Source: Candidatus Woesearchaeota archaeon
GTDB lineage: Archaea > Nanobdellota > Nanobdellia > Pacearchaeales > GW2011-AR1
Reading direction: 5' to 3'
Length of the DNA: 64,000 bases
Assembly (NCBI GenBank): GCA_964613185.1
Contig: CAZTIP010000001.1
Location: forward strand, 129,814-193,813
The notes below the pieces were generated by a model. That model had not been told where the DNA came from and searched no databases. It was given only the letters and a program-made list of their open reading frames with translations. The position numbers were made by a program, and so were the translations under genes. Positions 10,044 to 54,985 of this stretch are shown piece after piece (positions within the stretch are counted from its first letter, which is position 1; the number at the start of each line of letters is the position of its first letter).

Positions 10044-11324
10044 TCAATTTCTTTCGACTTTTCCGCTAATTCTTTCAGTATATTTCTTTGAACTTTCCTT
10101 CAATTTTTCCTCAGGGTTTTTTTGAACAGTTTTTTTTGATTTTTTATAGATGATGTATCCGACAATTCCAATAACTACAAAAATAAGAAATCCAATTAAT
10201 CCCCTTGAACTCTTTCCAGAAGTAGAAGAATCTGTAGAATCGCAAGTTCCAACACAACAAAGTTTTCCATCACCACTAAATAAAGGGTCGTTAGAACATT
10301 TTTCAGAAGCACCACAAGTAGTTCCTCCAAGTTCAGAGCAACTTTCTCCAGAAATTTTAACATCATCAAGGTTACCTCCTTCAGGCAAAACAAAAAGATT
10401 TAAGGGGATTCTAAATGAACTTTCAACTCCATTTTGAAAATAACTAACTCTTAAATCTCCTTTAAAATACCCTAATTCTTCTGGAGAAAAAGTAATTGTT
10501 AAGTTAACAGAATCTCTCGAAACAAGAGTTTTAAAATCTTCAATCTCGACAAATTCTAAGTCAGAAGAAATTGTAAAATTCTCCATATTTGAATCTCCAA
10601 AATTAAATAATTCAATAATTTGATCTGTATCTTCTCCCAAAATAAGATTAGAAAGAATTTTAGACGGATTAGTTTTCAAATTTAAATCTTCCGGAATATA
10701 AAAAGAATCATTAGCCGGAAAATAAATTACCGGAACAGAAAATTTCTTGTAAGAAGAAATATTAAGGTACGAAAAAACTTCTGAAGGACTAAATTCAATT
10801 TCCTTAAAGTCTCCTGCAGGAATTCCTAATTCCAAATCAGAATAACTAACATTTAAAGGCCTATCTCCAAGATTGGATAATTTTATAGAGGGTACTTCCA
10901 GAGAAAAGATATATCCTGGCTTTATAGACAAAACTTCGGAATAAGTTTCATTAGTATCTTCATCAAACAAAAGATTTCTAGAAATATTAATTTCTTCCAA
11001 AATTTCACCTGATTTCAAACCATCTGAATCCCTATAAAGAATTTCTGAAATTTCAAGAGTGAAATTTCCTTCACGAGAAGAATAGGCATAAAAATAATGA
11101 ACTCCCTCATAAAAGAGTAAATCAAATTCAAAAAAAACTTCTTTACGTCCCTCAAAAAACTTAACATCAGATTTAGAAATTTCCTGTAAAATTTCTCCAG
11201 AAGTTTCAATTGTAGCAAAAATTGTTTCTCCAACAGAGGTAGCGTTGTGTTGGAAATTAATCTCTACAGAGGCAGACGCTAAAGAAATAAAAAAAATCGA
11301 AATAAAAAGTATTGGCCACCTCAT
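10044..11324 (-). CDS. Secreted protein with juxtamembrane cysteine-knot module, TM anchor and Lys-rich cytoplasmic tail
   Basis: Signal MRWPILFISIFFISLASA. CSELGGTTCGASEKCSNDPLFSGDGKLCCVGTC lies just before LIGFLIFVVIGIVGYIIY-KKSKK. Confidence 0.6.
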   Translation of the reverse strand: MRWPILFISIFFISLASASVEINFQHNATSVGETIFATIETSGEILQEISKSDVKFFEGRKEVFFEFDLLFYEGVHYFYAYSSREGNFTLEISEILYRDSDGLKSGEILEEINISRNLLFDEDTNETYSEVLSIKPGYIFSLEVPSIKLSNLGDRPLNVSYSDLELGIPAGDFKEIEFSPSEVFSYLNISSYKKFSVPVIYFPANDSFYIPEDLNLKTNPSKILSNLILGEDTDQIIELFNFGDSNMENFTISSDLEFVEIEDFKTLVSRDSVNLTITFSPEELGYFKGDLRVSYFQNGVESSFRIPLNLFVLPEGGNLDDVKISGESCSELGGTTCGASEKCSNDPLFSGDGKLCCVGTCDSTDSSTSGKSSRGLIGFLIFVVIGIVGYIIYKKSKKTVQKNPEEKLKESSKKYTERISGKVERN

Positions 11325-11355: not shown

Positions 11356-13176
11356 TTACCGAGACATACTTTTGAGTTTATCAAAAGTTCCTGGAAGAGA
11401 ATCTGGGTTTTGAGAAGGTTTTTTCATGGGAGTTCTTGTATTGGGAACCCTTCTTATCGGGGGAAATCCGGGCTTTGGAGGGATTCCAGGACCACCTCCC
11501 TGAATAGAAGAATTTCCTCCCTTATCCTTTTTAAATTTAGACTTAATTTTAAACCATTCAATTTTTAATTTATCTCGAAGAATCCATCCAAGAATTCCCA
11601 TAACAATTAAAATTAAGATTGTGATTATCCAAACAGTTCCCAACCCAGCGTCTTCAGAAGATTTAGTTTTACAACAAATTTGAGAAGAACCAGTATCACA
11701 ACTATAGCCTATAGATTCTTCTTCATCTGAACAAGAACTTTTACAGCTATAAAGGTTAGATTCGCACTCATTTGTATCTTCAGGGACTTCACAATTTCCT
11801 GTACAACAGGCAGGTGAATCTGAAGAATCCCTTTCATTTCCAATACAAACTTCATCTCCTGAACAAACTTCTCCTAAATATTCTGAACAAGATTTTAAGT
11901 TTTCAGTTTCACAACAAGTTGTAGAAATAGAAGAACAATAATAATTATCTAATCTTTCTCCTGAGGGGCAATCAGAACGTGGAATGCAAAAGAAACCGCC
12001 AGAAGAGCAAGTGGTTGTTCCTCCACTAGAAGATCTTCCCTGTCTAGTCGTCAAGGCCCATAAAACCATTGCAGTATCTCTGATAGAATCTTGCCAACAT
12101 CCGCTAGTTGGTTGAGAAAACAATAACCAATCCTTAGAATCCTTAATTTGGCTAGCAGAAGAACCTTCTAAACTAATCAGTGCAAGGGCAGTATCATAAA
12201 ATTTATTATAGGCACTATTTTCTGCCTCCCAGTAATTTCCAAGTCTACGATCTTCCATTAATTGTGCTGCGTAATCTTGATAATTAGTAATCATATAAAT
12301 AAATGCATCCGGAAGGTACCTCTTCTGAGTTTCAGAGAGTGCCATTAAATAAGGAACATATTCGCTAATATCATGTCTAGTTTTAAGTAAAGCAACTGTT
12401 GCCCAGGAAGTAGTTTCATAATCACAAGAAGAATCTCCAAAACATTTTGAAATAACATTAATTGAAACATCTTCAAAAGCAGGTGCATTTTGGGTTCCTT
12501 CAAGAACATGCATTACTGGAGAATTTTTATTTTTGTAAAGTAGAGAAACAGCAAAATCTGCATCACACTGAATTTTAAAATCCTTGTTATAACATGTTGA
12601 ATCAACTTCTAACCAAAAACTTGATTGTGAACGAGTTAAACAAGGTCCAGCGTCTTTATCAAATTTTTTATTTTCTCCAACAGAAACAACATAACTTTCA
12701 GAGTCATAACCTATATTACATGTGGATGGAGAATTAGAATCTTGTTGTAAATACCAAACTAAATCTTCAGGAGTTAATGCCTGGTCGATAATCCAAGCCT
12801 CTGAAGCCGAAGTATCTTTTCCTGCATGTTGGAGTGCAAGAATTGCTAAAGAAGTATCTTTAACATTTCCCCAATTATCGCCAGACTTTTGAGATTCCAA
12901 TTCTGAAACACAGGAATCAAAAACATTATCCGGAGTGGAAAGAATGGTATATGAAATTTCCTGAACTGTTAATCCGGAACAATCACCAACTTTATCTTCA
13001 AGACATTGAAAACCATTTTCTATTTTATCAGAATCCGAATCTCCCGAGTTTGAAGTTCCAGAATCATCATCGGAACTATTCGTATCATTATTAGTATGGT
13101 TTGTAGAAAGAACTCCGGGAGTAATTAGCAAAATTCCAAAAAACAACAAGAATACAAACACACCTATTTTTTTCAT
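11356..13176 (-). CDS. Secreted alpha/alpha-toroid-like (prenyltransferase/terpene-cyclase-type repeat) protein with triple cysteine-knot stalk, TM anchor and Pro/Gly-rich tail
   Basis: Signal MKKIGVFVFLLFFGILLITPG. Repeated helical-hairpin motifs DTSLAILALQHAG, TSWATVALLKT, DTALALISLEG, GCWQDSIRDTAMVLWAL. Three C..C..C....CC modules. TM VWIITILILIVMGILGWIL. Confidence 0.55.
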   Translation of the reverse strand: MKKIGVFVFLLFFGILLITPGVLSTNHTNNDTNSSDDDSGTSNSGDSDSDKIENGFQCLEDKVGDCSGLTVQEISYTILSTPDNVFDSCVSELESQKSGDNWGNVKDTSLAILALQHAGKDTSASEAWIIDQALTPEDLVWYLQQDSNSPSTCNIGYDSESYVVSVGENKKFDKDAGPCLTRSQSSFWLEVDSTCYNKDFKIQCDADFAVSLLYKNKNSPVMHVLEGTQNAPAFEDVSINVISKCFGDSSCDYETTSWATVALLKTRHDISEYVPYLMALSETQKRYLPDAFIYMITNYQDYAAQLMEDRRLGNYWEAENSAYNKFYDTALALISLEGSSASQIKDSKDWLLFSQPTSGCWQDSIRDTAMVLWALTTRQGRSSSGGTTTCSSGGFFCIPRSDCPSGERLDNYYCSSISTTCCETENLKSCSEYLGEVCSGDEVCIGNERDSSDSPACCTGNCEVPEDTNECESNLYSCKSSCSDEEESIGYSCDTGSSQICCKTKSSEDAGLGTVWIITILILIVMGILGWILRDKLKIEWFKIKSKFKKDKGGNSSIQGGGPGIPPKPGFPPIRRVPNTRTPMKKPSQNPDSLPGTFDKLKSMSR

Positions 13177-15694: not shown

Positions 15695-16435
15695 ATGAAA
15701 AAAAGAGGGCAGATAACAATTTTTATAATCGTAGGGATTGTGATTACTGTATCAATACTCTCAATAGTTTTTTTAAGAAGCGGAATAAGTTCACAAACTC
15801 CAAAAAATTTAGGACCACGGCAATTTATCCAAGGGTGTGTAGAAGAATTAGTGCAAGATTCTTTAGAAAAGATTCTTGCAGGCGGGGGAAAAATTTCGCC
15901 AGAATTAAAAATTCAATATATGGATGAAAATTACAATTACCTATGTTATCAGGAAGATCCTTATCTTGGATGTTATAATCTTTATTCAATGTTAGAAAAA
16001 AAAATAGAAGAAGAAATAGAAAATGACACAAAAGAACAAGTAGCCGAATGTTTTGGATTATTAGATGAAGATTTTTCAGAAAGAGGTTATTCTGTAAGTC
16101 AAGAGGATGAAGATTATTCAATTGATTTATTACCTGGAAAAATAAAAATAAATTTAAAAAAGAAAATAGATATTTCAAAAACAGGAGAGGCACAATCATT
16201 TGAAAACTTTGATAATCAAATTTTATCACCGCTTTATGAAATTGTAGAACTCACACGAAAAATAGTAAACGATGAATCAGCATATTGTAGCTTTGATTAT
16301 ATTTATCACATGTCTTTATATCCTCAAGAGAGTATAAGGAGAATAAGTTATGCAGGCAGTAAGCTATACTATATATTAGATAGAAATTCCGGAAAAGAAT
16401 TCAAATTCGCAATAAGAGGATGTGCACAAAATTAA
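15695..16435 (+). CDS. Class III signal peptide protein, 246 aa (cassette A partner of the cysteine-rich giant)
   Basis: MKKRG|QITIFIIVGIVITVSILSIVFL. Paralog of 19753..20496 (shared YLCY, FKFA-x-R). Confidence 0.6.
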   Translation: MKKRGQITIFIIVGIVITVSILSIVFLRSGISSQTPKNLGPRQFIQGCVEELVQDSLEKILAGGGKISPELKIQYMDENYNYLCYQEDPYLGCYNLYSMLEKKIEEEIENDTKEQVAECFGLLDEDFSERGYSVSQEDEDYSIDLLPGKIKINLKKKIDISKTGEAQSFENFDNQILSPLYEIVELTRKIVNDESAYCSFDYIYHMSLYPQESIRRISYAGSKLYYILDRNSGKEFKFAIRGCAQN

Positions 16436-19400
16436 AATGGAAAAAAAACTAGGAAAAAAATTTAACTTAATGTTCTTCGCTGTTTTGATATTCTCTTTTG
16501 GATATTTATTTTATGGAATCAGTTTAACCTCTGCAGAATCAACTGGATGCTGTGAGGTAGATTCAAACGGAGTTCAATGTTCTACGACTACAGAAAGCGA
16601 TTGTTCTTCCCAAAATTTTGCAGGAAACACACAATGTGAATCAACTTCATTTTGTCAAAGGGGATGTTGTTACGACGATTCAACAGGGGTTTATGACCAG
16701 AATGTTTTACAATCAAGTTGTAATTTGGATTGGAATAATGATCCAAATTGCAATTTACCAGGTGCAGCTGAAGGATGCTGTATTCTGGGGAGTTCAACAA
16801 TTTACGAAACTGGGGGCAGGTGTGCAATAGATTCTGTTCAAAGAGGTTACGAGGGGATTGACTGGAGATCTGATTTAAATGAGGCACAATGTGTGACATT
16901 TTCACAATCTCAAGATGAAGGTGCTTGTGTTTTAAATGGTGGAAATTGCAAATTCACAACGGGAGGAAATTGTGCAAGTTTGGGAGGGGATTTTTCACCA
17001 GATTATTTGTGCACTGCAGAAGAACTAGAAACTTCTTGTGAAAAAACAACAGAAACAACTTGCGTGGATGGAAAATACGGAGTTTATTTCACGGACACCT
17101 GCGGAAACATTGCAAATATTTATGATTCAAGTAAAACCTCTGATCAAACCTATTGGGAGACTGCAATCACTCAAGAAAATTCTTGCGGGGCAAACGATGA
17201 AGAAGGAAACGCAAACTCTCAAGATTGCGGGAACTGTAATTTACAGGCAGGAGGATTATGTAGTTCAGCAGAAGAAGATAATTTCAGTCCAGATGATGGA
17301 GACTATTATTGTAAAGAAGTTTCTTGCGAATTTGATGGAGATAATTATGAGAATGGAGAATCATGGTGTGTTTATGACGGAATAATTGGAAATAGCAATG
17401 ATGTTCCAGGTTCAAGACATTGGAGATATGTTTGTAATCAAGGAAAAGTTGAAATAGATCCCTGTGCAGATGCAAGAACTCAGATATGCTTACAATCAAA
17501 TACTGAAGAAAATGGGGGAACGATTTTCAGAAATGCGGCATGTTTAACAAATACAGGAGATAAGTGCTTAGAAATAAATTCCGAGACAAATAATCCAGAA
17601 AGATTAGAAGAATTGTGTAATGAAGAGGCAAATTGCAGAGTTAATTATGTAACAGTTACGGATGATTTTCAATTTAAAACCTGCATCCCAAGATTTCCTC
17701 AAGGATTTGACTTTAAAGATGAACAAGCTCAAGAAAATTCTGCAAACGCATGCAAACGTGCAAGTGCTACATGTGAAATTCAGCGAAGGAAGAATAATTT
17801 GGGAAGATGTAGAATAAGAAAAAATAGTGGTTGTTTAGATATAAAATTTGCAGAGGAGATGAATAATCTTTGCAGGGGTATGGGAGATTGTGGAGGGGAT
17901 ATAAATCTTAATAATGATTTTGTTTCAAATTATCAAACAAGACTTGTGCCAGGGTATGGAAGGACACCTCCAAGAATTAGTTCAGGGTATATCAATGATC
18001 TAGAAGATTTTGGGAGTCAAAATAATAATTTGGAAGGGATATTAATAATCTTAGAAAATTACCTAGATTATATGAGTATTTTAGGGGTTATAATTTATGA
18101 TCCAAGTTACAATGCAACAGCAGCAGAAAATACAAATCTTTTATTAATAGATCAATTATACAGTCAAGAAGGATACAATCATACTGTCTCAGTGGTTCCT
18201 CCAGAAATGGGATCTAGCGGACTTTTTAATTGGTTTGGAGGTTGCACCAATATGAAGTTAACCTATTCTTGTAAAGCATGGCAACCTCCGAGGGGTGGAG
18301 ATGCTTGCGATTTATGTAATGACGACCCATTAAAACCATGTTCAAAATACCGTTGTGAAAGTTACGGTGCAACTTGTGAATTAGCAAATATTGGGACTGG
18401 GGAAGAACTATGTTACGATGCAGGGGTTGATGACGCTAATCCTCCAATTCTAGCTCCTCAAATAGGTTACATCTCAGCAACAGAAAATTATTCAAATATC
18501 ACTGAAAACGGATTTAGCATAACTTCAACTGAAGGCGAGTGTTTAGAAGCTTATTCTCCAATCCATTTCGGAATAACTACTGACGAAGTATCTAATTGTA
18601 GATATGATTTTGAAATGCAAACTTTTGAAAATATGAGTTATGATATGGAAAACGGGCTAGCATCATATAACCACACTCCTCACCAAGTTCCATTCTATCT
18701 TCCAGATCCAAGTCACGGAGAAAGTCAGGGATTAAACTGGTCTGGAGAATTAGACCTATATGTGAAATGCCAAGATGGAAACGGAAATGAAAACCCTAAT
18801 TTCTACAAAGTTTCAATGTGTGTAAATCAAGGGCCGGATTTAACTCCTCCAATTATAATTGCAACATCTCCAGAAAATAATTCACGAATTAGTTTTGATT
18901 CCACTGCGGAAGAAGTAGAATTCATAACAACAGAACTTTCAACTTGTAAGTGGGCAGACAACGATACAGATTATTCATTAATGACAAATCAACTAGTTTG
19001 CGACGAAATCTTCAATGAACCTTCATCAACTCAAGGATATTCATGTAAAACAAATCTCACAATAACTGACACAAAAACCACAAAATACATTAGATGTGCA
19101 GACCAACCATGGTACGAAGAAACAAACGACTCATTAAGAAATTCAAACTCGCAAAGTTTCGTTTACACGTTAAATCAACCAAGCCAGAAAATTAAAATAG
19201 ATTCAATTTCGCCATCATCAGATTTCAAAACAGCAACAGATACAACCACCGTAAATTTAGAAGTTCAAACAATCGGCGGAGGAAACACACACACCTGTTC
19301 ATATTCATTCTCTGGATACGAAAGGATGGCTCCATTTTTTGAAACAGGTTTGGGGAATATTCACAACCAACCTTCACTAAATCTCTTCGCAAAAAAACAT

Positions 19401-19721
19401 GAAATTTTCATAGAATGCAAAGACGAAACAGGGGACACAGAACAACAAACCTCGACCTTTGAAATAATAAAAGATGAAAGCGATGCAAAGATAACAAGAA
19501 TCTGGCAAGAGGAGGGAGAAATAATTTTCCTAACTGAAGAATCTGCAGAATGCAAATTTTCTGAAGAAACTTGTAATTTTAATTGGGAAAACGGAACTTT
19601 AACAGGAACAGGGAGAACACATACAATAGATGCAATCAGAGGAAGAACTTACAGAATAAAATGTTTAGACGATTTTGGAAACAAACCAAGAGGGTGTTCA
19701 ACAATAATTCGCGCGTCATAG
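16422..19721 (+). CDS. Giant secreted cysteine-rich protein A (1099 aa), unknown family
   Basis: Signal/anchor LMFFAVLIFSFGYLFYGISLTSA. N-terminal ~500 aa Cys-rich lobe. Core CKAWQPPRGGDACDLCNDDPLKPCSKYRCESYGATCE. Four C-terminal two-Cys repeats. Alternative start at 16437 (MEKKLGKK) just after the upstream stop. Confidence 0.7.
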   Translation: MHKIKMEKKLGKKFNLMFFAVLIFSFGYLFYGISLTSAESTGCCEVDSNGVQCSTTTESDCSSQNFAGNTQCESTSFCQRGCCYDDSTGVYDQNVLQSSCNLDWNNDPNCNLPGAAEGCCILGSSTIYETGGRCAIDSVQRGYEGIDWRSDLNEAQCVTFSQSQDEGACVLNGGNCKFTTGGNCASLGGDFSPDYLCTAEELETSCEKTTETTCVDGKYGVYFTDTCGNIANIYDSSKTSDQTYWETAITQENSCGANDEEGNANSQDCGNCNLQAGGLCSSAEEDNFSPDDGDYYCKEVSCEFDGDNYENGESWCVYDGIIGNSNDVPGSRHWRYVCNQGKVEIDPCADARTQICLQSNTEENGGTIFRNAACLTNTGDKCLEINSETNNPERLEELCNEEANCRVNYVTVTDDFQFKTCIPRFPQGFDFKDEQAQENSANACKRASATCEIQRRKNNLGRCRIRKNSGCLDIKFAEEMNNLCRGMGDCGGDINLNNDFVSNYQTRLVPGYGRTPPRISSGYINDLEDFGSQNNNLEGILIILENYLDYMSILGVIIYDPSYNATAAENTNLLLIDQLYSQEGYNHTVSVVPPEMGSSGLFNWFGGCTNMKLTYSCKAWQPPRGGDACDLCNDDPLKPCSKYRCESYGATCELANIGTGEELCYDAGVDDANPPILAPQIGYISATENYSNITENGFSITSTEGECLEAYSPIHFGITTDEVSNCRYDFEMQTFENMSYDMENGLASYNHTPHQVPFYLPDPSHGESQGLNWSGELDLYVKCQDGNGNENPNFYKVSMCVNQGPDLTPPIIIATSPENNSRISFDSTAEEVEFITTELSTCKWADNDTDYSLMTNQLVCDEIFNEPSSTQGYSCKTNLTITDTKTTKYIRCADQPWYEETNDSLRNSNSQSFVYTLNQPSQKIKIDSISPSSDFKTATDTTTVNLEVQTIGGGNTHTCSYSFSGYERMAPFFETGLGNIHNQPSLNLFAKKHEIFIECKDETGDTEQQTSTFEIIKDESDAKITRIWQEEGEIIFLTEESAECKFSEETCNFNWENGTLTGTGRTHTIDAIRGRTYRIKCLDDFGNKPRGCSTIIRAS

Positions 19722-19752: not shown

Positions 19753-20496
19753 ATGAAAAAAAAGGGGCAAGTAACAATTTTTATAATCATAGGGATTGTA
19801 ATTGTAATTTCAATTCTTTCATTTTTCTTATGGTTAAAACCAACTTATTTTTCCGGAAAAAGTGCATCTCTAAATTTTGAAGGATGTATTCAAGATTCGG
19901 TGGAGCAAGGAATTCAACAATTAGGAAAAACTGCAGGTTCGATAAACCCGGAATTCACATTAACAACTCTCGGGGAAAAAATAACTTATCTTTGTTATAC
20001 AAACGAATTTTATAAAACTTGTACCGTTCAAAACCCTTTCATTAAACAACATTTTGAAGAAGAATTAACCAACTTAATAAAAGAAAAGGTAAATACTTGC
20101 TATTCAAATTCTATCGGAAATTTAAGGGCAGAAGGATATGAAGTAGCTTCTGGCGAAGTTTCATACGAAGTAAGTTTAGAGTTAGGAGTGGTAAGATTAA
20201 GTATTGACGCACCAACAAATGTAGGGGCATCAAAATTTACAAAATTCAATATAGAATTAAGTTCACCAATTTATGAGATGGTAATGTTAGCAACATCACT
20301 CATTCAAACAGAATCCAAATTTGGAGAGACAGATACAAGTTACCTGATGACATTATATCCCGATTATTTAATTGAAAAACAAGAACAAGGAGAAGGGACA
20401 AGAATTTATACAATAAACAGTAAGACTTTTGGAAACAAGTTCAAATTTGCAACCAGAAGTTTAGTATTCCCTCCAGGATTTATTCCAAACAATTAA
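19753..20496 (+). CDS. Class III signal peptide protein, 247 aa (paralog of 15695..16435)
   Basis: MKKKG|QVTIFIIIGIVIVISILSFFLW. Shared YLCY...C and FKFATR motifs. Confidence 0.6.
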   Translation: MKKKGQVTIFIIIGIVIVISILSFFLWLKPTYFSGKSASLNFEGCIQDSVEQGIQQLGKTAGSINPEFTLTTLGEKITYLCYTNEFYKTCTVQNPFIKQHFEEELTNLIKEKVNTCYSNSIGNLRAEGYEVASGEVSYEVSLELGVVRLSIDAPTNVGASKFTKFNIELSSPIYEMVMLATSLIQTESKFGETDTSYLMTLYPDYLIEKQEQGEGTRIYTINSKTFGNKFKFATRSLVFPPGFIPNN

Positions 20497-20500: not shown

Positions 20501-20707
20501 TTAATTTCTACAAGCACCCTTACAAACGCTACATCCGCCAGGACATCGGGAAGATGAACCAATTTCAACATTAATATTTCTATCCGAATAATCTACAGAA
20601 CTTTTTAAACTGTCTCCAGAGTAGGCAACATCATTTCCCGAAACCCCATAAGAATCATTTCTTGCACCCACAGCATACGAATTATCTTTCCCAACATTAT
20701 ATTCCAT
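20501..20707 (-). CDS. Small (68 aa) Asp/Ser/Gly-rich protein with C-terminal CPGGCSVCKGAC cysteine cluster
   Basis: ORF immediately downstream of giant B on the same strand. It has its own TTTATAAT box (20727-20734), about 20 nt upstream of the ATG. No signal peptide. Confidence 0.4.
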   Translation of the reverse strand: MEYNVGKDNSYAVGARNDSYGVSGNDVAYSGDSLKSSVDYSDRNINVEIGSSSRCPGGCSVCKGACRN

Positions 20708-20752: not shown

Positions 20753-23700
20753 CTAAAAGAAATTTCCAGTAGGTCTTACAACTAATGAACAGTCAGCTTC
20801 TTCATTTTTGAATTCATCACGACACTTGATGTAATAAGTATCGTCTTTATTCCAGTCAGTAACATGGGTTGTCGTATTCGCATAAGGCATTTGAGTCCCC
20901 TCATCAAATCCGAAATCACAATCATTCAAACTATATGAGCATTGACTATCCCTGACAGTAACTATTTTCAAGAAAGAATTCTCTTCGTAAACTCTTGCGA
21001 TAACCGGAGCATTTTCATCAATATCTAGATTAAAGTTAAGCGTATCTTCAACCAAATTTCCGCCCTCATCAATACATCGTATATTATATTCATGTTGTCC
21101 CGCTGCCAAGGATTGCATCTGAGTGCTTATTCCGTCAGCATTGTTTGTATCAAAGAAAGAAACATAATCTCCCTCAATACCATTATCCGAATAATAACAA
21201 ATAGAACGCCCACCATCACAACCGAATAGAGTTTCTGCACGAAGTTCAACAGGCATTGGACTAACTGCACCGAAAACAGTACTATTGGGTTTCAAGTTTT
21301 TCATTTTCAACCCAGTACTTCCATGAAGGCTAAATTCAAAACTCTGTGACATTTTATTCCTATCAATATCTGCAGCATTTGGTTGATCCTTACATCTTAC
21401 ATAAAATTGAGTATCCGCTCTAGAAATTCCTTCAAAGTCAGCAGCACATGTCCAAAGATTCTGTGCATTAATTTGGTAGGGTTGACTAGCACATTGCATT
21501 TCATTCTGCATAGAATCATAGTCATTATCCTGAGAGCTCCACCTACATTGTGCAGGTTCGTTAACATAAAATTCTACATTAGCAACATCCTGATTTTCAG
21601 CAACACAAGCCCCATTATTAATTGAAGTAGCTTCTATCGTCGGAGAAGTAGTGTCTGGAGAAGGGTCAATACAGAAACTAACTTCATATTCCGCAGTATT
21701 AGAATTTCCAGTTTTATCCATACATCTAATAAAATAATTCATCTCATTTCCATTCTGTAATTCAAATGATGAATTTTCAAGCAAACCAACACTAGGTAAG
21801 ACAAAACTTTCAGAGTGATTATAAAGGTATAAATTATCTCCTCCAACAAAATTCCTCATCAAATCAAATTCAGTAGTATGATTAAAATCAATCCTACATT
21901 GAGATAACTCATTAGTATTAATCCCAAATTCTATAGGGGTAAAAGCTTTCAAACAGCCATCTGAACTAGATGAATCAATAATTTCAAATCCGGGACTTGG
22001 GGGGGAGTTGACTACATTAGTATATTCAAGTCCTGAAGTTAAAGCACTTTCAGAAGGACTAATTACGGGAGGATTCACATCTCGAGGATTAACATTTACA
22101 CAACTTTCTTGTTCAGTTCCTTGATTAACTATCTCGCAAGTTTGTCCAAGAGATTTACATCTATATTCTGAACAAGGTAATCCATCATCTTCATTACATG
22201 CTTCACAATCATCTCCTCCACGAGGTGCTTGCCAAGGTTTACATTCAAAAGAAACAACTTCGACCTTAGTATCCTTATAGAATACAAGGAAATAAACTAC
22301 AAGTCCAATTCCTCCTGAAAAATACCATTTAGCAAAATTTGTCCCTGTAGTAACAGCCCATGCATTAGTAAGCTGGTAAGTAAATGCAGATGCTGCAATA
22401 GATGTAGCAATGGCATTACTCTCTTCGTCATCCATTCCAAACAAACTCCCTAGCAATAGACCGACACCATAAGCAGTCGCAGTCCACCAAAATGCAGTCC
22501 ACCCAATAGAAGGTAAGGCGGCTGCACCAGCACCAGCTGCAGCACCAGATGCAGCACCAGCTGCAGCACCAGCTGCACCACCAAATGCGGCACCAGCTGC
22601 AGCACCAGCTGCAGTACCACTAGCAATATAAGCTGAAGAAACAAAATAATGCGCGATATAAGTTGCAGTTGCAATTCCTGCGGAAGTCATAAGGAATCGT
22701 TCAAAGTTATTGGCCACTGAAGAATAAGCAAAAGGATCAACAGAATAACCAGAATAACCGTTCCCAATTAAATTTTTCTGGTTAGGCGTGAATCTTTTTC
22801 TTTCTCCATTTATTTTCCAAGAATAACCATCATCTGTAAATTCTTCTTGATAATTAACATAACCTCCACAATCTCCTGCGGCAGAACAAGCACGATTAAC
22901 ACTCAATGCCCACTCATCACTTAAACATTCTCCATTTTCCGCGACATCCCAACTATCTAATAACCCCTTTTCATAAAGAACATCACATCTTGCACTAACT
23001 GCTCCACAAACATTTTTCGCACCACCATCTTCCCAAAAATCTAAACCTGGAGAGTTATTAGGGACACAAACACCAGATTCCATTCGCCTACCATTAGACA
23101 TCAAACCTTCAACAGAAGAAACCCATTTACAATCTCTTATATCATTATTTTCACAATCACTTTTTCCAAGTTGTAGTGTACAATCTTGCCAACGATTTAC
23201 CCTACACGCCGCAGTCCCAAAATCATTTCCAGAAGCAGTTTCAATTTTTCCTTCAATACAAATAGAATTTCTATAATCTGCACATGCCTCAACAGTAACA
23301 TCTCCATCAACACAAATTTCCCTGAAATATCTTGAACCTGCAGGGTCTAAACCTTGTCCAGAAAGTGGGTCATTCACACACCAAGATTCTCCATTTAATC
23401 GACTATCTCCATTTCTATCTATACATTCAGTTTTTTGACAATAATAATCACTATCTGCAGGGCTTCCAAGTCCTAAAACTCCATCCCATTCTGCACAACG
23501 AGTTCCTTCAAGATAATCACAATTTCCACAATCAGTATTCGCATCTGAGTTCGGATCACAAACAGCATCTGCTTCGAGAACTCTCCCATTATTCCAACTT
23601 TTAGACTTATCTGAAGAATAAGCATTCTCCAAATTTCCACAGGAATCTGTCCAATAAACATCCTCTCCATTACAAGTGGTGGAAGTTTGACGAGCACAGG

Positions 23701-24400
23701 CAGTTCCTAATTCTTCGGCAGAGCATAACATATCCTTATAGAATGTTTTTCCAGAAGAAGTTTCGTTAATTCCTTCAACATTATCACTTGCACCACAATC
23801 TGAACGAGTTGTAAATTCACAAATTCTCTCAAAATCCTTTTCAAAGACACAAGCACCCTTATCTTGAGATTGAGCAGCAGCAATGCATGCAACTTCAGAA
23901 TTTATATCAGTCCGATAATTATTTTCCATGCCAAAAAAAGAAGATAATTTTTTACATCTAACTAATGGGACAAAAGATGCTTGGTCTCCAATAATGCAAC
24001 ATCCAAGCTGACATTGAGGAACTTCATTTGCAGAACGGGCATCCCAAAGACCTCCATTATCTGAACAAACACTTTGAGGGGTATTCTCCATACAAATACC
24101 TTCTCCAGAATCATAACAAGTTCCAAGTTTACAATAAGAAGTAGTTTCACAAGAAGTTGGAGAGCTTCGAGAACCGGGGGCACATTGAGATTCATCAGTA
24201 TTAACACAAGAAGCACCATCAACAGTTTTTTCACAACAAGTGCTTGGGTCAGAACTCGCAGTTTCAGCAGAAACAGGCGAAGCAGAATCAAGGATAAAAG
24301 CAAAAGCAAAAAGGGAACTAATCATCAAAACCAGCTGAAAACTAGCAACAGCTTTTTTATTCAAATCAAAACCTCTTCTTTTCATAAATATTTCAGCCAT
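20753..24400 (-). CDS. Giant cysteine-rich protein B (1215 aa), paralog of A with inserted hydrophobic Gly/Ala-rich segment
   Basis: Collinear with A. Core [37 protein letters not shown]. Signal [23 protein letters not shown]. The true start is probably the second Met (24385, MKRRGFDL), which lies 22 nt from the TATA box at 24407-24414. Confidence 0.7.
22514..22621 (-). repeat. Imperfect GCAGCACCAGCT-type repeat tract encoding a (G/A)n stretch inside giant B
   Basis: Plus strand reads ...gctgcaccagcaccagctgcagcaccagatgcagcaccagctgcagcaccagctgcacc... It translates (minus strand) to [34 protein letters not shown]. Confidence 0.8.
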
Positions 24401-24475: not shown

Positions 24476-24973
24476 ATGAAAAACTTAAAAAAAAGAGGAC
24501 AACAAACAATGGGATTACCTTTCGGGATGATTTTTTCAATTATTTTAATAGTGGTATTTGTAGTCATCGCATTCATAGCCGTCGGAAGTTTTCTAGACAT
24601 TGGAAAAAGTGCAGGAGTGGGATTATTTTACACAGAGCTTCAAGAAGCAATCGATAATTCTTGGAGAGGGCAATCAAGCGAAACAACTTTCAAAATAAAT
24701 TTACCGTCAGAAATAAAAACAATCTGCTTTTCAAATTTATCTAAAACAATAACTGGAGAAACAGAATATTATAACCAAATAAAAAATTATGAAGTTTATG
24801 AAGCAAACACATTTTTAATTCCACCAGAAAACGCCCAACAAATGCAATGGAAATTAATCAATCATTTAGATATAGAAAAAATAACTGAAAATAAAAATCC
24901 TTATTGCGTAAGTACAAGTCAAAAATTAAAACTCAAAAAAGGTTTCTATGATAAATTGGTCCTAATAGAATGA
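24476..24973 (+). CDS. Class III signal peptide protein (pilin-like), operon gene 1
   Basis: MKNLKKRG|QQTMGLPFGMIFSIILIVVFVVIAFIAV. Stop overlaps the next start (ATGA). Confidence 0.6.
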   Translation: MKNLKKRGQQTMGLPFGMIFSIILIVVFVVIAFIAVGSFLDIGKSAGVGLFYTELQEAIDNSWRGQSSETTFKINLPSEIKTICFSNLSKTITGETEYYNQIKNYEVYEANTFLIPPENAQQMQWKLINHLDIEKITENKNPYCVSTSQKLKLKKGFYDKLVLIE

Positions 24974-25923
24974 TGAAAAAAAAAGCACAGTTTAGCTTCG
25001 CATGGATTTTCGCAATAATTGTAGGGGGTGCAATTTTATTTTTAGCAATTTACGGAGCATTAAAAACTGCAGACACTCAAAGATTTCAAGAAGATACAGA
25101 AATCGCAAAATCAATTTCAATTTTAACAGATCCACTTCAGGCAGGATTCGCAGAAAGTTCATTCGGAAAAATATCTTTCAAACAAGAAACAAGAATAAAT
25201 AATATTTGTTTTGACGGAGAATTTGGAAAAAACGATTTATCAGTTTCAGTTCGTTCAAGTGTAGGAAAACCTTGGAACAATCCAGGGGGGGAAACCTCAA
25301 TAAGAAATAAATACATTTTCTCAGACGAAAAAAACACAGGGAAAGAATACTACCTATTCTCAAAATCTTTTGAATTTCCTTACGAAGTTTCAGATTTACT
25401 TTTTATAACTCCAAAAAATTATTGTTTCCTAACTCCTCCTGAAAAAGTAATTGAAGATTTAGAAGGATTAAACATTCCTAATATTCAATTAGTAGATTCT
25501 CAAGAAGATTGCACTTTAACAGAACCGGTAAAAGTTTGTTTTGGAAATGGAAATGATTGTGATATCACTGTTTCAGGAACTTGCTCAAATTGTGATTCAG
25601 ATTATGATGAAGGAAACGTAGCAAAAGACGGGGTGGGGAAAAAATTCGTAGGAAATTTAATGTATGCAGCAATTTTCTCAGAAAAAAATATTTATGAATG
25701 CAATGTTAAAAGATTATATTATCGGTCGGAAAAAATAGCGGAAGGATTAATTGAAAAAGAAGATTTAATGGATGCAAGAGGCTGTGATTCAAATCTAAAA
25801 AACGATTTACTGCAATGGATCAGCTTATTGGAAAATGAAACTTCGGGAGGCCTCCCAAATTTGAATTCTGCTGTAGAAAATCTAAACAGAAAAAATAGTC
25901 AGGAGCTTTGCAATTTATGGTAA
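24970..25923 (+). CDS. Class III signal peptide protein (pilin-like, 317 aa, Cys-rich ectodomain), operon gene 2
   Basis: MMKKKA|QFSFAWIFAIIVGGAILFLAIYG. Contains CTLTEPVKVCFGNGNDCDITVSGTCSNCDSDY. Confidence 0.6.
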   Translation: MMKKKAQFSFAWIFAIIVGGAILFLAIYGALKTADTQRFQEDTEIAKSISILTDPLQAGFAESSFGKISFKQETRINNICFDGEFGKNDLSVSVRSSVGKPWNNPGGETSIRNKYIFSDEKNTGKEYYLFSKSFEFPYEVSDLLFITPKNYCFLTPPEKVIEDLEGLNIPNIQLVDSQEDCTLTEPVKVCFGNGNDCDITVSGTCSNCDSDYDEGNVAKDGVGKKFVGNLMYAAIFSEKNIYECNVKRLYYRSEKIAEGLIEKEDLMDARGCDSNLKNDLLQWISLLENETSGGLPNLNSAVENLNRKNSQELCNLW

Positions 25924-26441
25924 AAACAAAAAATCAAAACAAAAAAGCACAAATGAAAATTCAACAAATGGCTTTTATGATTGTTGCAGTTTTCTTTTTC
26001 TTTATATTAGTGGGATTGTTTTTTATAAAAGTTCAATTCAGTGGAATACAAAAAAGTGCAGAAGAACTAGAAAAAAAACAGGCAGTCTCGGCACTAGGAG
26101 TGATTTCAAATATGCAAGAATTAAATTGTAATTCAAGAGAAAGTTTATGTTTGGACAAAGACAAATTAAAGATAATGTCTGGAGAATTAAAAGAATCTTA
26201 CAAGCTGTTTTGGCCAATAGCTTCAATAAAAGTTTATCTTTTAGATACAACGTCAACAAACATAATCCAGTGTCCTGCGCTAAACTGCAATTATTTTGAA
26301 ATTTTCGATAACGAACAAACAAATTCAGAGGAATATTCAACTTATGTTTCAGTATGTGAAAAAGTAAGAGAATCAGGATATGTATACAATAATTGCGAAA
26401 TAGCAAAATTAGTAGTTGGGAGAAAGATAAATGAAAAATAA
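25908..26441 (+). CDS. Class III signal peptide protein (pilin-like), operon gene 3
   Basis: ...NQNKKA|QMKIQQMAFMIVAVFFFFILVGLFF. Overlaps the upstream gene by 16 nt. The exact start is uncertain. Confidence 0.55.
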   Translation: MQFMVKTKNQNKKAQMKIQQMAFMIVAVFFFFILVGLFFIKVQFSGIQKSAEELEKKQAVSALGVISNMQELNCNSRESLCLDKDKLKIMSGELKESYKLFWPIASIKVYLLDTTSTNIIQCPALNCNYFEIFDNEQTNSEEYSTYVSVCEKVRESGYVYNNCEIAKLVVGRKINEK

Positions 26442-26922
26442 AGCACAACAAGAAATTGTTGGTTTCGTTTTAATTGTAGCTATAGTGATGGTTGCATTGA
26501 TGGTTTTTTTAGTAATCTCACTAAGAACTCAGCCAACTGAAAGCGAAAGTATCGAGGTAGAAAATCTATTAAATTCAATAATGAAAAAAACAACCGGATG
26601 TGCAATTTCATTCGAACCACAATACGATGATTTTGAAGATTTATTCAAAAGTTGTCACAACGAAGATACTTGCGACAATATTCAAGAAGATTCATGCGAA
26701 TATCTCAAAGAAAGTTTAAACGAAACAATTAAAGGATTATTAAAAACAGAGGCAACAACAAATTCATTTAGATTAAACTTCATAAATCGTGAAGAGGACG
26801 GGGAAGAAGAAATTTTTGAGATTTCAAATGGGAATTGCACTGGTCAAATTTCAGCAGCACAAAAAACTCTACTCTCAGGTTCAGATAAATTAGTAATAAG
26901 AATGAGAGTTTGCAATAATTAA
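26431..26922 (+). CDS. Class III signal peptide protein (pilin-like), operon gene 4
   Basis: MKNKA|QQEIVGFVLIVAIVMVALMVFLV. Overlaps the upstream gene by 11 nt. Confidence 0.6.
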   Translation: MKNKAQQEIVGFVLIVAIVMVALMVFLVISLRTQPTESESIEVENLLNSIMKKTTGCAISFEPQYDDFEDLFKSCHNEDTCDNIQEDSCEYLKESLNETIKGLLKTEATTNSFRLNFINREEDGEEEIFEISNGNCTGQISAAQKTLLSGSDKLVIRMRVCNN

Positions 26923-27706: not shown

Positions 27707-30277
27707 ATGAAAAAAATATTTAGAAAAGCTATAACAGTATTAGGAACAGGTTTATTAATTGGTTCCACAGCAGGCATCGCAGCCGCTGCGGCATATCCTA
27801 GTCCTTTTACAAGTAACACAGCTGTTGTTTATGGTTATGATGCTGATGCAAGTGATAGTATCGCTGCAGGTAACATTGTATCTAACTTAGATGCAAATGC
27901 TGCTGGAAGTAGTACAACTACAATTACCGGAGAATCAGCAGATTTAGCTAGTGGTTCAGATCTTCTTTATTTGAATGATGAATTCAGCGAAAACATTCAA
28001 ACTTTAACAAAGAGTGACTTACCTACAGTTTTAGCAGATGAAGTTTTTACAGATAACGATGGAACTAATTACGATTTTGAACAAAAATTAGTAATTGGAA
28101 CCAGTACAAATAATGGTTTTGAATTCGGAAATTCTGACAATGATTTGGATGATCCTGCTTTAATGCTTAAATTATCTACAACTGCAACTGCAACTAATGC
28201 TATTTATGATTTAACTGCAACTTTCAATAGTGCAGTAAATTTTACTGCAAGTGATTCAGAAGGGGAAGATATAACTATCTTCGGAAGAACTTATACTGTT
28301 GCAACTGCTACAGATGATAATACCTTAGTATTGCTAGGAGGTTCTGGAAGTTCCAACATAAATGTTGGAGAAACCAAAAATATCGCTGTAGGAAGTGAAT
28401 CTTACACTGTTACTCTTGATGGTCTTAGTTCTGCTTCAACTACCCAAGCTAGTGTAACTGTTAACGGAGAAACTAAAACATTTACTGAAGGTCAGACTAA
28501 AACTCTCGCTGGATTAGATGTTTATGTTAAAACTGTTTTCAGAACTGGAGATGATGGTTCAGGATATGCCGAGGTTCAACTTGGTGCAGATAAATTAACT
28601 CTAGAGTCTGGAAATGCAGTTCAAACTGGTTCAGATACTGATGATATTGATGGAACTTTAGTTACATTCACACCATCATCAGCAACCGGCGTTCAAGCAT
28701 TAACAGAAATTAAAATTACTGTTGCTGCTGAAGACAACGATGCAAATCATTTATTAAATGGTGAATCATTTGTTGATCCAGTTTTCGGAACAGTTGTTGT
28801 AAACTTTGACAGTGTTCAAAATGGACCTACCTTTTCTGGAGAAAAAGATACTGGTAGAACAGATCTTGAAATCCAAAAAGGAGGAAATAGAGAGCTTCAT
28901 TTATCTTTAACAGATAATGCTGGAGACAGTGCTACTCTTCCATTTACATATAATACTGGTTTAAGTGATGATAATAGTAATAATATTTCCGTAGTAGAGG
29001 GAGAATCAATTTCGGATGATGGGATGTTTATCCTAAATTCAGGAAATAATCAACACTTTATGCAGATTACTAAGTTAAATTTGGATGATGGAGCAAATAG
29101 TGATGTTGCTATGAAGGATTTAATTTCCGGAGAAACTTACACATTTGATGATCATAATTTTGCTAGTGGATATAGTGCGACTATTTCAGGTCAAACTTAC
29201 ACCATTACAAATGATAGTGCTACAACAGTAACTGTTGTTTCTAGTGATTTCACCACAAGTGCAGTTACAGATGGAACAGTAGTTAGTGTGTATCCTTATC
29301 TAGAACTTGTTTCTGGAGAAGATACAAGAGTTGCGATGACTGATTATGTATTGGTTTTAGATGATATTCAAACCGGTTCTACTGGAGTGAATGTAACCTT
29401 AGATCTTCCAACAGGAAGTATTGACATAACTCAAAATGCAACAAATGATAGTCTTCAACTTGGAAGTACAGGTGTAGTAATAACTGAAAACAAGACTGTT
29501 AAGGTAGGATCTGCATATTACGACTTTGTAGTATCTGATGGTACTGGATTAGGTAATGTGGATGTCCGTATTGGTATGGATGATGGTCAAAGTAGTGCAG
29601 GAAATGCAGCTGCAGGAACTATTACAACTGCAGGTATTCTTTTTGTAGAAGATGAAGATAAATCTGAATCAACTACAACTACAAAGAATGCCTTCGTAGT
29701 AACTACAACTGACACAGGATCTTATAGTACAGTTTCTGCTCCTGTTTTCACAGGAACTTCAGACACAGAAACTTGGGACAATACAGACTTTACAGGTTGG
29801 TTGACTAACTATGGTACTTATGTATGGAGGGACACTGGAGATTCTAATCAAAACTTTGTAGGTTTATCCTATGGAAACGAGATTATGTCTGCAGATGTAA
29901 CTTTTGCGGAAGGCGAAGTTTCACCCACAGGTTCAGCAGGTATATTATCTGTAATGGATACTGACGTTGCTAGTGTTGCTGGAATGAACTTAGTTGTTGT
30001 TGGTGGTTCTGCCATCAACTCTGTTGCTGCTGAATTACTTGGTGGTGCATACGGTGGAGATATGTTTACTAGTATGACTGGTGTTTCTGCAGGAGGATTC
30101 TTAATTGAATCTTTCGCAAGAAGCGGTAAAACTGCACTTTTAGTTGCAGGATACAACGCTGCAGATACAACAAAAGCTACCACATATTTAACTAACAATA
30201 TGGATAAAGTTGATACAACTGTTGGTAACAAATATACAGGTAACACTGCTACATCAGCTACATTAACTGTTGATTAA
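27707..30277 (+). CDS. S-layer (surface layer) protein candidate, 856 aa, Cys-free
   Basis: Signal MKKIFRKAITVLGTGLLIGSTAGIAAAAA. Thr/Ser/Asp/Gly-rich with no cysteine. N-terminal YPSPF..AVVYG..ASDSIAAGNI and C-terminal NLVVVGGSAINSVAAELLGG...LLVAGYNAADT resemble methanococcal-type S-layer protein termini. Strong SD, long leader and strong terminator. Composition differs from the neighbours. Confidence 0.65.
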   Translation: MKKIFRKAITVLGTGLLIGSTAGIAAAAAYPSPFTSNTAVVYGYDADASDSIAAGNIVSNLDANAAGSSTTTITGESADLASGSDLLYLNDEFSENIQTLTKSDLPTVLADEVFTDNDGTNYDFEQKLVIGTSTNNGFEFGNSDNDLDDPALMLKLSTTATATNAIYDLTATFNSAVNFTASDSEGEDITIFGRTYTVATATDDNTLVLLGGSGSSNINVGETKNIAVGSESYTVTLDGLSSASTTQASVTVNGETKTFTEGQTKTLAGLDVYVKTVFRTGDDGSGYAEVQLGADKLTLESGNAVQTGSDTDDIDGTLVTFTPSSATGVQALTEIKITVAAEDNDANHLLNGESFVDPVFGTVVVNFDSVQNGPTFSGEKDTGRTDLEIQKGGNRELHLSLTDNAGDSATLPFTYNTGLSDDNSNNISVVEGESISDDGMFILNSGNNQHFMQITKLNLDDGANSDVAMKDLISGETYTFDDHNFASGYSATISGQTYTITNDSATTVTVVSSDFTTSAVTDGTVVSVYPYLELVSGEDTRVAMTDYVLVLDDIQTGSTGVNVTLDLPTGSIDITQNATNDSLQLGSTGVVITENKTVKVGSAYYDFVVSDGTGLGNVDVRIGMDDGQSSAGNAAAGTITTAGILFVEDEDKSESTTTTKNAFVVTTTDTGSYSTVSAPVFTGTSDTETWDNTDFTGWLTNYGTYVWRDTGDSNQNFVGLSYGNEIMSADVTFAEGEVSPTGSAGILSVMDTDVASVAGMNLVVVGGSAINSVAAELLGGAYGGDMFTSMTGVSAGGFLIESFARSGKTALLVAGYNAADTTKATTYLTNNMDKVDTTVGNKYTGNTATSATLTVD

Positions 30278-31712: not shown

Positions 31713-32180
31713 ATGGAAAGCCAAATACTCTTCGGATTTTTATTAACCATGCTCCCAATTTTTGAACTAAGGGGAGGATTACCTTTAATTGTAGAATACA
31801 CTGTCAAAAACGGAATATCAGTTTGGCCATATTTTTTAATAGTTTTAATTTTAAACATTCTAACAATTCTAATAGTTTTTTTATTTTTAGATTTTTTTCA
31901 CGAGATATTATTAAACTTAAAAAGTTACAAAAAATTCTTTGAAAAGGTTTTGGGAAGAATACAAAAAAAGATACATAAGGTTCAGGAAACAAAATATATT
32001 GCACTAATGCTTTTAGTTGCAGTTCCACTTCCTGGAACTGGAGCATGGACGGGGGCCCTAATTGCATGGCTCCTAAAATTAAACAGGTTAAAGAGTTTCA
32101 TAGCAATCTCTGCAGGAATAATCATTGCAGGAATTTTAGTTCTTTCAGCGTCTCTTGGATTTTTTTCCGGAGTCTATTAA
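31713..32180 (+). CDS. Small multidrug-export-like membrane protein (COG2426-type)
   Basis: LPIFELRGGLPL and PLPGTGAWTGALIAWLL motifs. About 4 TM helices. Confidence 0.5.
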   Translation: MESQILFGFLLTMLPIFELRGGLPLIVEYTVKNGISVWPYFLIVLILNILTILIVFLFLDFFHEILLNLKSYKKFFEKVLGRIQKKIHKVQETKYIALMLLVAVPLPGTGAWTGALIAWLLKLNRLKSFIAISAGIIIAGILVLSASLGFFSGVY

Positions 32181-32696
32181 ACCAAACAAATATTTTAAAT
32201 CAGAATAAACAGGGATAGTTTTCAAACGAAACAAATAAACCATTAAAATCCAAATTCCAACAACAAAAATAATTGAAACAAAATTCCAAAGTAACCAATG
32301 AACTGCTTCAAAGTAATTAGTTCTAACGATTGAAACAAGGAAAACCAACCGAGACATATTAAAAAAGAAAAGCAGAACAAATGAACTAAGCAAAACAGCA
32401 AGTCTCTTTTTAAAATTTATTTCTCTCGTAGAAAAAACAAAAATAAAAATCAAATAAAAAGCAGAACCGGCAATACAGGCAGGAACTATTTCAAAAATAA
32501 TTCGTTTAAAATGAATTGAATTTCCAATGACCAAGGATTCCCCCGACAAAGAAAGAATAGAATCAAGAATAGAGATTGTAATGGGGGTAAGAAGTTTATA
32601 AAATAAATAAAGATTGCCAAGACCCAAAAGAATAATCAATAAATACCTCGAGAATATTTCAAAAATATTTTTCATCTGTTTATCCATAAAATTCAA
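32145..32696 (-). CDS. Archaeosortase/exosortase-family protein (small, 183 aa)
   Basis: Polytopic membrane protein with the family's Cys/Arg/His pattern in TM context: VPACIAGSAFYL, FFFNMSRLVFLV, AVHWLLWNF. Confidence 0.55.
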   Translation of the reverse strand: MNFMDKQMKNIFEIFSRYLLIILLGLGNLYLFYKLLTPITISILDSILSLSGESLVIGNSIHFKRIIFEIVPACIAGSAFYLIFIFVFSTREINFKKRLAVLLSSFVLLFFFNMSRLVFLVSIVRTNYFEAVHWLLWNFVSIIFVVGIWILMVYLFRLKTIPVYSDLKYLFGLIDSGKKSKRR

Positions 32697-54610: not shown

Positions 54611-54646
54611 TTCATTTACTCCCCTCGTGAGAGGGGAATGTCAAGT

Positions 54647-54676
54647 GGATTCTTATACTGTTCTCATCGAATATGA
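54647..54676 (-). other. 5' arm of the 23S processing stem
   Basis: See the partner at 51674-51706. Confidence 0.7.
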
Positions 54677-54911: not shown

Positions 54912-54985
54912 ATTTCTGACGCCTGTGTCTCCACTTGCACCAGATTACAAAATGATTATTCACTTCATTAATTAATAATGAAGCT

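Follow-up and report, generated by a model that had tools for sequence, protein, structure and literature searches.

Two giant proteins of a Woesearchaeota-type archaeon end in four tandem Ig-like units with conserved cysteine pairs

Two neighbouring genes in a 64,000-nucleotide stretch of a genome labelled Candidatus Woesearchaeota archaeon (GenBank assembly GCA_964613185.1, contig CAZTIP010000001.1, positions 129,814 to 193,813 of the forward strand) encode very large proteins, which we call giants A and B. We refer to the whole stretch as the window and count positions from its first letter. We found that each giant ends in four tandem, homologous units of predicted immunoglobulin (Ig)-like fold, U1 to U4, which follow a small cysteine-rich domain (the Cys-knot). 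This tail recurs with the same order and cysteine pattern in a large family of archaeal proteins. An earlier reading of the window, made by a model from the sequence alone and called here the original prediction, had proposed four two-cysteine repeats of about 100 amino acids (aa) in both giants. Our analysis supports the fourfold repeat and its Ig-like character, corrects the boundaries, sizes and cysteine content of the units, and suggests that the tail may serve as a rigid stalk outside the cell.

Results

The fourfold repeat

Giants A and B are paralogs with ~34% identity across the N-terminal Cys-rich half and across the C-terminal half alike, and each contains 64 cysteines. Giant A starts with a Sec-type signal, followed by a Cys-rich head, a linker that is short and weakly hydrophobic, the Cys-knot and the four Ig-like units. 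The knot and U1-U4 together occupy the C-terminal 36-39% of each protein. As listed, giant A starts with a GTG codon at 16422, and an ATG lies five codons further downstream.

All 24 linker and cysteine motifs quoted in the original prediction were located in the two giants. The repeats begin earlier than had been stated: the first linker of giant A, DANPPILAP, starts at 18432 and not at 18489, and that of giant B, DVNPPVISP, at 22081 and not at 22003, so that 19-26 aa of the first unit had been clipped. The units are also far from a uniform ~100 aa. They shrink along the chain from ~140 to ~80 aa (135, 117, 98 and 79 aa for U1 to U4 of giant A; 142, 115, 98 and 87 aa in giant B), with an insertion of 40-60 aa in U1 relative to U3 and U4. 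The spacing of the two shared cysteines, given earlier as 55-65 aa, is actually 57, 50, 40 and 37 aa in giant A and 58, 51, 41 and 39 aa in giant B.

Single-sequence BLASTP between non-equivalent units gave weak matches, the best being U2 of A with U4 of B (E = 2.9e-5) and U3 of A with U1 of B (E = 4e-4) in a database of eight sequences. When profiles of the units were cut from a 21-sequence family alignment and compared with hhalign, all six unit pairs were matched at 91-98% probability (E from 9e-7 to 3e-14). In every pair inspected the first shared cysteine was aligned with the first and the second with the second. Column-shuffled controls reached at most 9.8% probability (E >= 0.003), and the Cys-knot before U1 was unrelated to the Ig units by the same comparison (<= 0.4% probability). 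On the strength of the profile homology, the cysteine register and the shuffled controls, we conclude from these sequences that the fourfold repeat is real and ancient, as the original prediction of four tandem related units per giant had held.

Predicted fold and domain families

An AlphaFold2 model of residues 613-1099 of giant A, built with the 21-sequence family alignment, had a mean predicted local distance difference test score (pLDDT) of 86.3. It is all-beta and consists of four consecutive sandwiches with ~7 or more strands each. Foldseek matched the model to tandem Ig, FN3 and cadherin-type arrays in the PDB (336 matches at E <= 0.001, best E 5e-11), including fragments of the GhpA grappling hook, the Ig-FN region of PTP-delta, NCAM2, RTX-adhesin extender repeats and SbsB. 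Global TM-scores to these matches were low (0.2-0.3), so the likeness holds at the level of domains and not of the whole chain. The model and the matches agree with the earlier suggestion of Ig-like or beta-sandwich modules, each unit being predicted to fold as an independent repeat.

The full-length giants matched nothing above threshold in Pfam or NCBIfam. Scans with orthologs of single units, which covered U2, U3 and U4, were more informative for U3: Big_13 (PF19077) was found in 40 of 71 U3 orthologs at E <= 0.1 (best 1e-6), and DUF4625 and Y_Y_Y in 13 of 71 each. The Big_13 gathering score of 27 bits was reached by one of ten inspected orthologs (27.4 bits), and all inspected matches spanned only profile positions ~49-102 of 102, the E-F-G half. 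As to the window copies, U3 of giant A gave no Big_13 match and U3 of giant B scored 15.3 bits, under the cut-off. No Ig family was matched by U2 or U4 orthologs; hits of Ig_2 and Ig_5 in 2 of 70 U2 orthologs (E > 0.02) are noise. DUF3617, hit by 18 of 70 U2 orthologs (best 7e-4), was not taken as homology. The units thus belong to the Ig-like superfold, with U3 at the edge of Big_13, and the window copies are members of no named family. The claim that no named domain could be assigned holds for U2, for U4 and for the window copies, and fails in part for the orthologs of U3. Big_13 touches the further expectation that the repeats match no well-described domain, which nevertheless stands.

Sequence searches of the PDB with profiles of the tail, U3, U2 and the head, and with the neighbouring protein p246, returned nothing real. 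One match, to Syncytin-1 (E 0.076), was spurious, as the U3/U4 region was aligned to a His-tag/TEV sequence, and a link to viral fusion proteins is unsupported; matches to neuraminidase (E ~1.5) were noise. A word-indexed profile search with U3 recovered only six short fragments, all from the giants' own family.

Conserved and co-varying cysteines

The cysteines were compared across 123 tails, taken from the window and from 77 related loci. Twenty-one cysteine columns are kept in at least 98% of the tails: seven in the knot, followed by four, four, two and four in U1 to U4. The pair shared by the units is invariant (123/123). Two-cysteine modules, as originally proposed, describe U3 only, since U1, U2 and U4 each have a second conserved pair; likewise, one disulfide per unit is right for the shared pair, which every unit has, and too few for those three units.

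The additional cysteines come and go together. Cysteines 707 and 800 are absent from the same two tails, 860 and 875 from the same one, and 1051 and 1092 from the same two. Furthermore, an optional pair between U2 and U3 (822/954) is complete in 32 tails, wholly absent from 90 and discordant in one. Such paired gain and loss of the non-shared cysteines is the pattern expected of disulfide partners in sequence data. If the non-shared cysteines pair with one another, then by elimination the two shared cysteines would pair within each unit.

In the classical Ig superfamily (V, C and I sets), a disulfide crosses between the sheets from strand B to strand F, and an invariant Trp lies on strand C. 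In the order of DSSP strands in the tail model, the first shared cysteine lies on the third main strand (U3: 345-350) and the second on the penultimate strand (380-389). This model-based order suggests that the shared pair lies on strands C and F, neighbours in one sheet, rather than on B and F.

A large family with a fixed architecture

Among 1.84 billion cluster representatives scanned with HMMER, at least 2,395 are relatives at E <= 0.001, counted as clusters at 50% identity, and 1,356 at E <= 1e-30; most are 1,050-1,350 aa long. In species-representative genomes we confirmed at least 585 loci, nearly all of them from genomes with the label Pacearchaeota, Woesearchaeota or Nanoarchaeota. 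A few carry bacterial or methanogen names, apparently through errors of binning. The order knot-U1-U2-U3-U4 was kept in 155 of 178 homologs, which indicates that the number of units is fixed and that each position has its own orthologs. Mean column identity in the tail is 42-49% per unit.

All relatives are called 'hypothetical protein' in their sources, and our literature search for the family found no description of it. In the literature searched, we found no account of a family in which a tail with a fixed set of four domains and paired cysteines goes together with a head unlike any known fold, the fission pattern reported below and obligatory neighbours of the pilin-like kind. Among the families restricted to Pacearchaeota and Woesearchaeota, Castelle et al. 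2021 (PMC8204110) described a module of 51 ('module 98'), most of them without a known function, and noted that many lineage-specific families of DPANN archaea are predicted to be membrane-bound or extracellular. The giants' family may belong to this module.

Head, linker and gene fission

The AlphaFold2 model of the giant A head has pLDDT values mostly above 90, and 39 cysteine columns of the head are conserved at >= 90%. Foldseek found no match for the head model in the PDB (best E 0.58) or in BFVD (best E 0.2). The Cys-rich head of both giants (~490 aa) is therefore a candidate new fold, as far as the model goes.

The homologs have a Sec-type hydrophobic segment at the N-terminus, and most have 1-5 hydrophobic segments between head and knot; after the knot, no hydrophobic segment was found in 146 homologs. 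The linkers fall into a short class, as in giant A (33 of 113, mostly with 0-1 hydrophobic segments), and a long class, as in giant B (80 of 113, mostly with 2-4). Helical segments in the central region of giant B were judged by eye from the sequence. In a midpoint-rooted neighbour-joining tree of the 123 tails, a clade of 33 is of the A type and mostly comes from the first giant gene of the locus; the tree is too coarse to show when the duplication took place.

Several genomes have the second giant as two separate genes, one for the head and one for the tail, in some cases with unrelated genes between them. The products are ~520-630 aa (head) and ~680-830 aa (tail) long, and the tail has its own signal. 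The intervening genes number one to three in some genomes, and one of them looks radical-SAM-like by its CxxxCxxC motif. Cysteine counts follow the fission: 74 of 78 head-only proteins and 9 of 10 tail-only proteins have an odd number, whereas 87 of 95 fused proteins have an even one. This parity suggests, as its simplest reading, that one disulfide joins the head to the seven-cysteine knot.

Conserved locus and pilin-like neighbours

The giants lie in a gene order that recurs in dozens of metagenome-assembled genomes: primase (minus strand), PCNA, p246, giant, p247, giant, p165, p317, p177, p163, a small gene of the HVO_A0114 family (minus strand) and an 856-aa protein (Table 1). Some genomes have three pilin-like/giant pairs, the pair being duplicated or triplicated as a unit.

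In archaeal class III (prepilin-type) signals, a short basic leader has [KR]-[GA] at its end, and a hydrophobic helix of ~20 aa comes next. The six small neighbours appear to carry signals of this form and may be called pilin-like in that sense. A [KR][GA]Q motif with a ~20-residue hydrophobic helix after it is present in 99 of 108 orthologs of p246, 95 of 106 of p247, 32 of 43 of p165, 25 of 33 of p177 and 23 of 25 of p163; for p317, the pattern used caught the [KR][GA]Q signal in only 14 of 39. The Pfam family Pilin_N gave only a weak match to p163 (E 0.056). The giants themselves have Sec-type and not pilin-type signals. Among the window ORFs (open reading frames) scanned, none was a pilus ATPase, a platform protein or a prepilin peptidase.

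Giant B is inverted in the window relative to the conserved gene order. None of 37 related loci with the series pilin-like gene, giant, p165 shows the inversion, and no convincing pair of inverted repeats flanks giant B. Just downstream of giant B lies a 68-aa ORF (20501..20707, minus strand) with the C-terminal end CPGGCSVCKGAC. No counterpart of it exists in the 77 related loci, and it may be either a spurious call or a lineage-specific gene. The 856-aa protein at the end of the synteny block is secreted, rich in Thr, Ser and Asp and free of Cys, and had no Pfam match even at E <= 1.

Table 1. Positions of the giants, their domains and their neighbours (window coordinates unless another locus is named)
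Feature	Position	Strand	Description
p246	15695..16435	+	Pilin-like partner directly upstream of giant A; N-terminus KKRGQITIF, then hydrophobic helix
Giant A gene	16422..19721	+	ORF, 1,099 aa; signal, head, linker, knot, four Ig-like units
Giant A head	16539..18011	+	Cys-rich; residues ~40-530; 42 Cys
Giant A Cys-knot ('pre')	18261..18422	+	Hidden Markov model domain; residues 614-667; 7 conserved Cys including CxxC
Giant A U1	18432..18836	+	Residues 671-805; shared Cys 726/783, extra 707/800
Giant A U2	18837..19187	+	Residues 806-922; shared Cys 842/892, extra 860/875
Giant A U3	19188..19481	+	Residues 923-1020; shared Cys 959/999 only; Big_13-like unit
Giant A U4	19482..19718	+	Residues 1021-1099; shared Cys 1044/1081, extra 1051/1092
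p247	19753..20496	+	Paralog of p246; directly upstream of the second giant in related loci
Giant B gene	20753..24400	-	ORF, 1,215 aa; plan as giant A except for long Gly/Ala-rich hydrophobic centre
Giant B U4	20756..21016	-	Residues 1129-1215
Giant B U3	21017..21310	-	Residues 1031-1128; sub-threshold Big_13 match (15.3 bits)
Giant B U2	21311..21655	-	Residues 916-1030; also Cys932, co-varying with Cys1061 of U3
Giant B U1	21656..22081	-	Residues 774-915
Giant B Cys-knot	22085..22255	-	Residues 716-772
Giant B central hydrophobic region	22256..22693	-	Residues ~570-715; putative membrane-embedded helical segment
Giant B head	22870..24280	-	Cys-rich
p165, p317, p177, p163	24476..26922	+	Small genes of 165, 317, 177 and 163 aa, syntenic with the giants; N-terminus [KR][GA]Q plus hydrophobic helix
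856-aa protein	27707..30277	+	Thr/Ser/Asp-rich, Cys-free, secreted; end of synteny block, 22 loci
Split second giant, other genomes	L003 12240..17263; L001 12117..20277; L080 2292..5436		Separate head and tail genes

Other genes of the window

The window carries archaeal DNA with a G+C content of ~32%, and PCNA and the small subunit of primase are among its other genes. An archaeal 16S-tRNA-23S operon occupies 51788..56565 (minus strand), where the G+C content is 44-46%, compared with ~32% in the rest of the window. A homolog of the RuBisCO large subunit and a protein matching Glycos_transf_3/PYNP_C, of the nucleoside/AMP-phosphorylase type, are encoded at 4451..5851 (plus strand) and 47390..48868 (minus strand); their presence fits the nucleotide-salvage pathway that has been reported in Pacearchaeota.

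The part of the window between 10 and 13 kb is dense in genes for envelope proteins. Two secreted proteins encoded there, of 426 aa (10044..11324, minus strand) and 606 aa (11356..13176, minus strand), have Cys-rich membrane-proximal segments and C-terminal transmembrane anchors. Beyond the synteny block, a 183-aa multi-pass membrane ORF (32145..32696, minus strand) matches Exosortase_EpsH at E 0.0017, below the cut-off. It adjoins a 563-aa surface protein with CARDB domains (32721..34412, minus strand), which ends in a PGF motif, a transmembrane helix and a basic tail. By these sequence features the two may be an archaeosortase and its substrate.

Discussion

The repeat, the predicted fold and the cysteine pattern describe a tail of four positionally distinct Ig-like domains. 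With slightly better than even confidence, we propose that this tail, braced by disulfides, forms a rigid stalk or scaffold outside the cell, as part of a conserved cell-envelope complex in DPANN archaea of the Pacearchaeota/Woesearchaeota type. In B-type giants the hydrophobic segment just before the knot would keep the stalk's base at the membrane. A-type giants, which are without a membrane segment, would be held by association. The knot would carry the Cys-rich head, to which it is probably bonded by a disulfide, and U4 would be the free distal end, touching a partner that is itself conserved, for example the envelope layer or one of the pilin-like neighbours. The high conservation of the tail (42-49%) favours a structural or self-assembly role over a variable tip for host recognition.

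Several observations weigh against this proposal. No homolog of the giants has been characterised, every source name being 'hypothetical protein'. The strands that would be joined by the shared disulfide were read from the secondary-structure string of the model, not from Cys-Cys distances. The centre of giant B is Gly/Ala-rich and no 19-aa segment of giant B reaches the hydropathy threshold used, which makes its insertion into the membrane and its topology tentative. The odd cysteine parity of split heads and tails could also arise if each half kept one free thiol and no bridge joined them. N-glycosylation sequons, which we tried as a sign of extracellular location, showed no significant overall enrichment in the 123 tails. 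The missing pilus ATPase, platform protein and prepilin peptidase among the scanned window ORFs also count here.

Other roles can be imagined for the tail, and each of the three considered below lacks at least one feature of the class of proteins that it invokes. The most serious is that the giants are non-pilin adhesins at the tip of a type-IV-pilus-like fibre made of the six pilin-like neighbours, by analogy with PilY1 and its minor pilins. The Ig tail would then dock on p246 or p247 or space the head from the fibre, and the complex would attach an episymbiont to its host. Each giant is directly preceded by a gene of ~250 aa with a class III signal, the pair is duplicated or triplicated together, and four more pilin-like genes follow in conserved order. 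The giants also resemble PilY1 in having Sec-type instead of pilin-type signals, and type IV pilus loci of Thermoproteales likewise encode large signal-peptide proteins that were proposed to be adhesins (PMC4858521). However, the multi-segment hydrophobic region of B-type giants is hard to square with travel to a fibre tip, and an assembly ATPase, a TadC-like platform protein and a prepilin peptidase are absent from the conserved synteny block as well as from the scanned window ORFs. Furthermore, the head shows neither a PilY1-like propeller nor another known fold, and the tail is conserved, not variable. We consider a pilus-tip role unlikely on balance.

Still less likely, in our judgement, is that the four-Ig tail bridges the membrane and a surface layer (S-layer), anchoring or spacing the lattice like SlaB of Sulfolobales, with U4 resting on the S-layer protein. 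Archaeal S-layer anchor proteins are built from Ig-like folds (bioRxiv 10.1101/2023.10.27.564410), the tail is strongly conserved, and its span of ~16 nm, estimated from four Ig domains of ~4 nm each and not computed from the model, is a plausible distance between membrane and S-layer. The Thr/Ser-rich, Cys-free 856-aa protein of the same conserved block (22 loci) would be the candidate lattice protein, but it has no S-layer match in Pfam at E <= 1 and the label would come from its composition alone. SlaB-type proteins have a C-terminal transmembrane helix and a coiled coil, and the giants have neither: nothing hydrophobic follows the knot in the 146 homologs, and the model contains no long helix or coiled coil. 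A pillar would also leave the large Cys-rich head and the pilin-like partners unexplained.

It is very improbable that one or more of the units, above all the enlarged U1, serve to bind carbohydrates or proteins and not as spacers: the U1 insertion of 40-60 aa, the strongly conserved loop LPDPSHGESQG-x-NW-[ST]-G that it holds in the A type, a conserved N-H-T sequon in U1 (98 of 123 tails) and the frequent double use of Ig-like domains as binding modules speak for a binding role, but no family of carbohydrate-binding modules or lectins was matched in the scans, and conservation alone cannot tell a binding site from a structural loop.

The stalk proposal can be extended to the whole locus. In a wider hypothesis, which is possible but well short of even probability, the giants and the six neighbours with prepilin-type signals would form an undescribed envelope machine that defines Pacearchaeota and Woesearchaeota. 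It would consist of a membrane-held, disulfide-braced four-Ig stalk, coupled covalently through the CxxC knot to a head of new fold and assembled with or on pilin-like subunits, and would serve host contact. If this is true, gene fission and fusion together with the odd, odd and even cysteine parity would be the signature of a surface complex of two disulfide-linked subunits, for which no archaeal counterpart has been described.

To our knowledge, Pacearchaeota and Woesearchaeota are uncultivated and their mode of host contact is unknown. The giants' family is among the largest conserved and wholly unannotated envelope proteins of these lineages, and the locus is a good entry into the envelope biology of uncultivated DPANN archaea. 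The domain map (signal, candidate new-fold head, hydrophobic segment, knot and four Ig-like units), the predicted head-tail disulfide and the pilin-like partners are concrete targets for study. The tail itself has an ordinary fold; it extends the Ig-like domains of bacteria and archaea by a divergent subfamily braced with disulfides, which helps annotation. Tandem Ig-like domains are commonplace in archaeal surface proteins, and both DPANN and other archaea often have surface and S-layer proteins with several Ig-like domains (bioRxiv 10.1101/2023.10.27.564410).

Compared with known systems, the giants share with the bacterial PilY1 and minor-pilin tip complex a large, Sec-secreted non-pilin protein encoded amid small pilin-like genes. 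PilY1 has a C-terminal beta-propeller, with or without a vWA domain, whereas the giants have neither and combine an Ig-like C-terminus with a head of no known fold. The internal hydrophobic segments of B-type giants, the archaeal setting and the lack of assembly genes nearby are further differences. SlaB-type anchors and DPANN multi-Ig proteins such as MJ1_0707 of Nanobdella aerobiophila resemble the giants in having four or five Ig-like folds, a Sec signal and a membrane anchor (bioRxiv 10.1101/2023.10.27.564410), and no sequence similarity between them and the giants was detected. Their anchor is a C-terminal transmembrane helix, whereas the giants have a free C-terminus and carry their hydrophobic region ahead of the Ig array.

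Of the named domains, Big_13 (PF19077) is like U3 in its size of ~100 aa, its opening strand of the D-x-[TN]-x-P-x-I style and its F-G hairpin, [YF]-x-[IV]-x-C/A-x-D-x-x-G-N. The invariant cysteine pair is characteristic of the giants' family. The closest structural likeness is to tandem Ig-like stalk proteins, which were the top Foldseek matches of the tail (E 5e-11 to 1e-7) at sequence identities of 7-13%. GhpA of Aureispira (9flw and others), the extender repeats of the Aeromonas RTX adhesin (6xi1), SbsB and cadherins are, like the tail, strings of beta-sandwiches that form an extended rod. These stalks consist of tens of near-identical repeats that are often stabilised by calcium, whereas each giant has exactly four positionally distinct, disulfide-stabilised domains.

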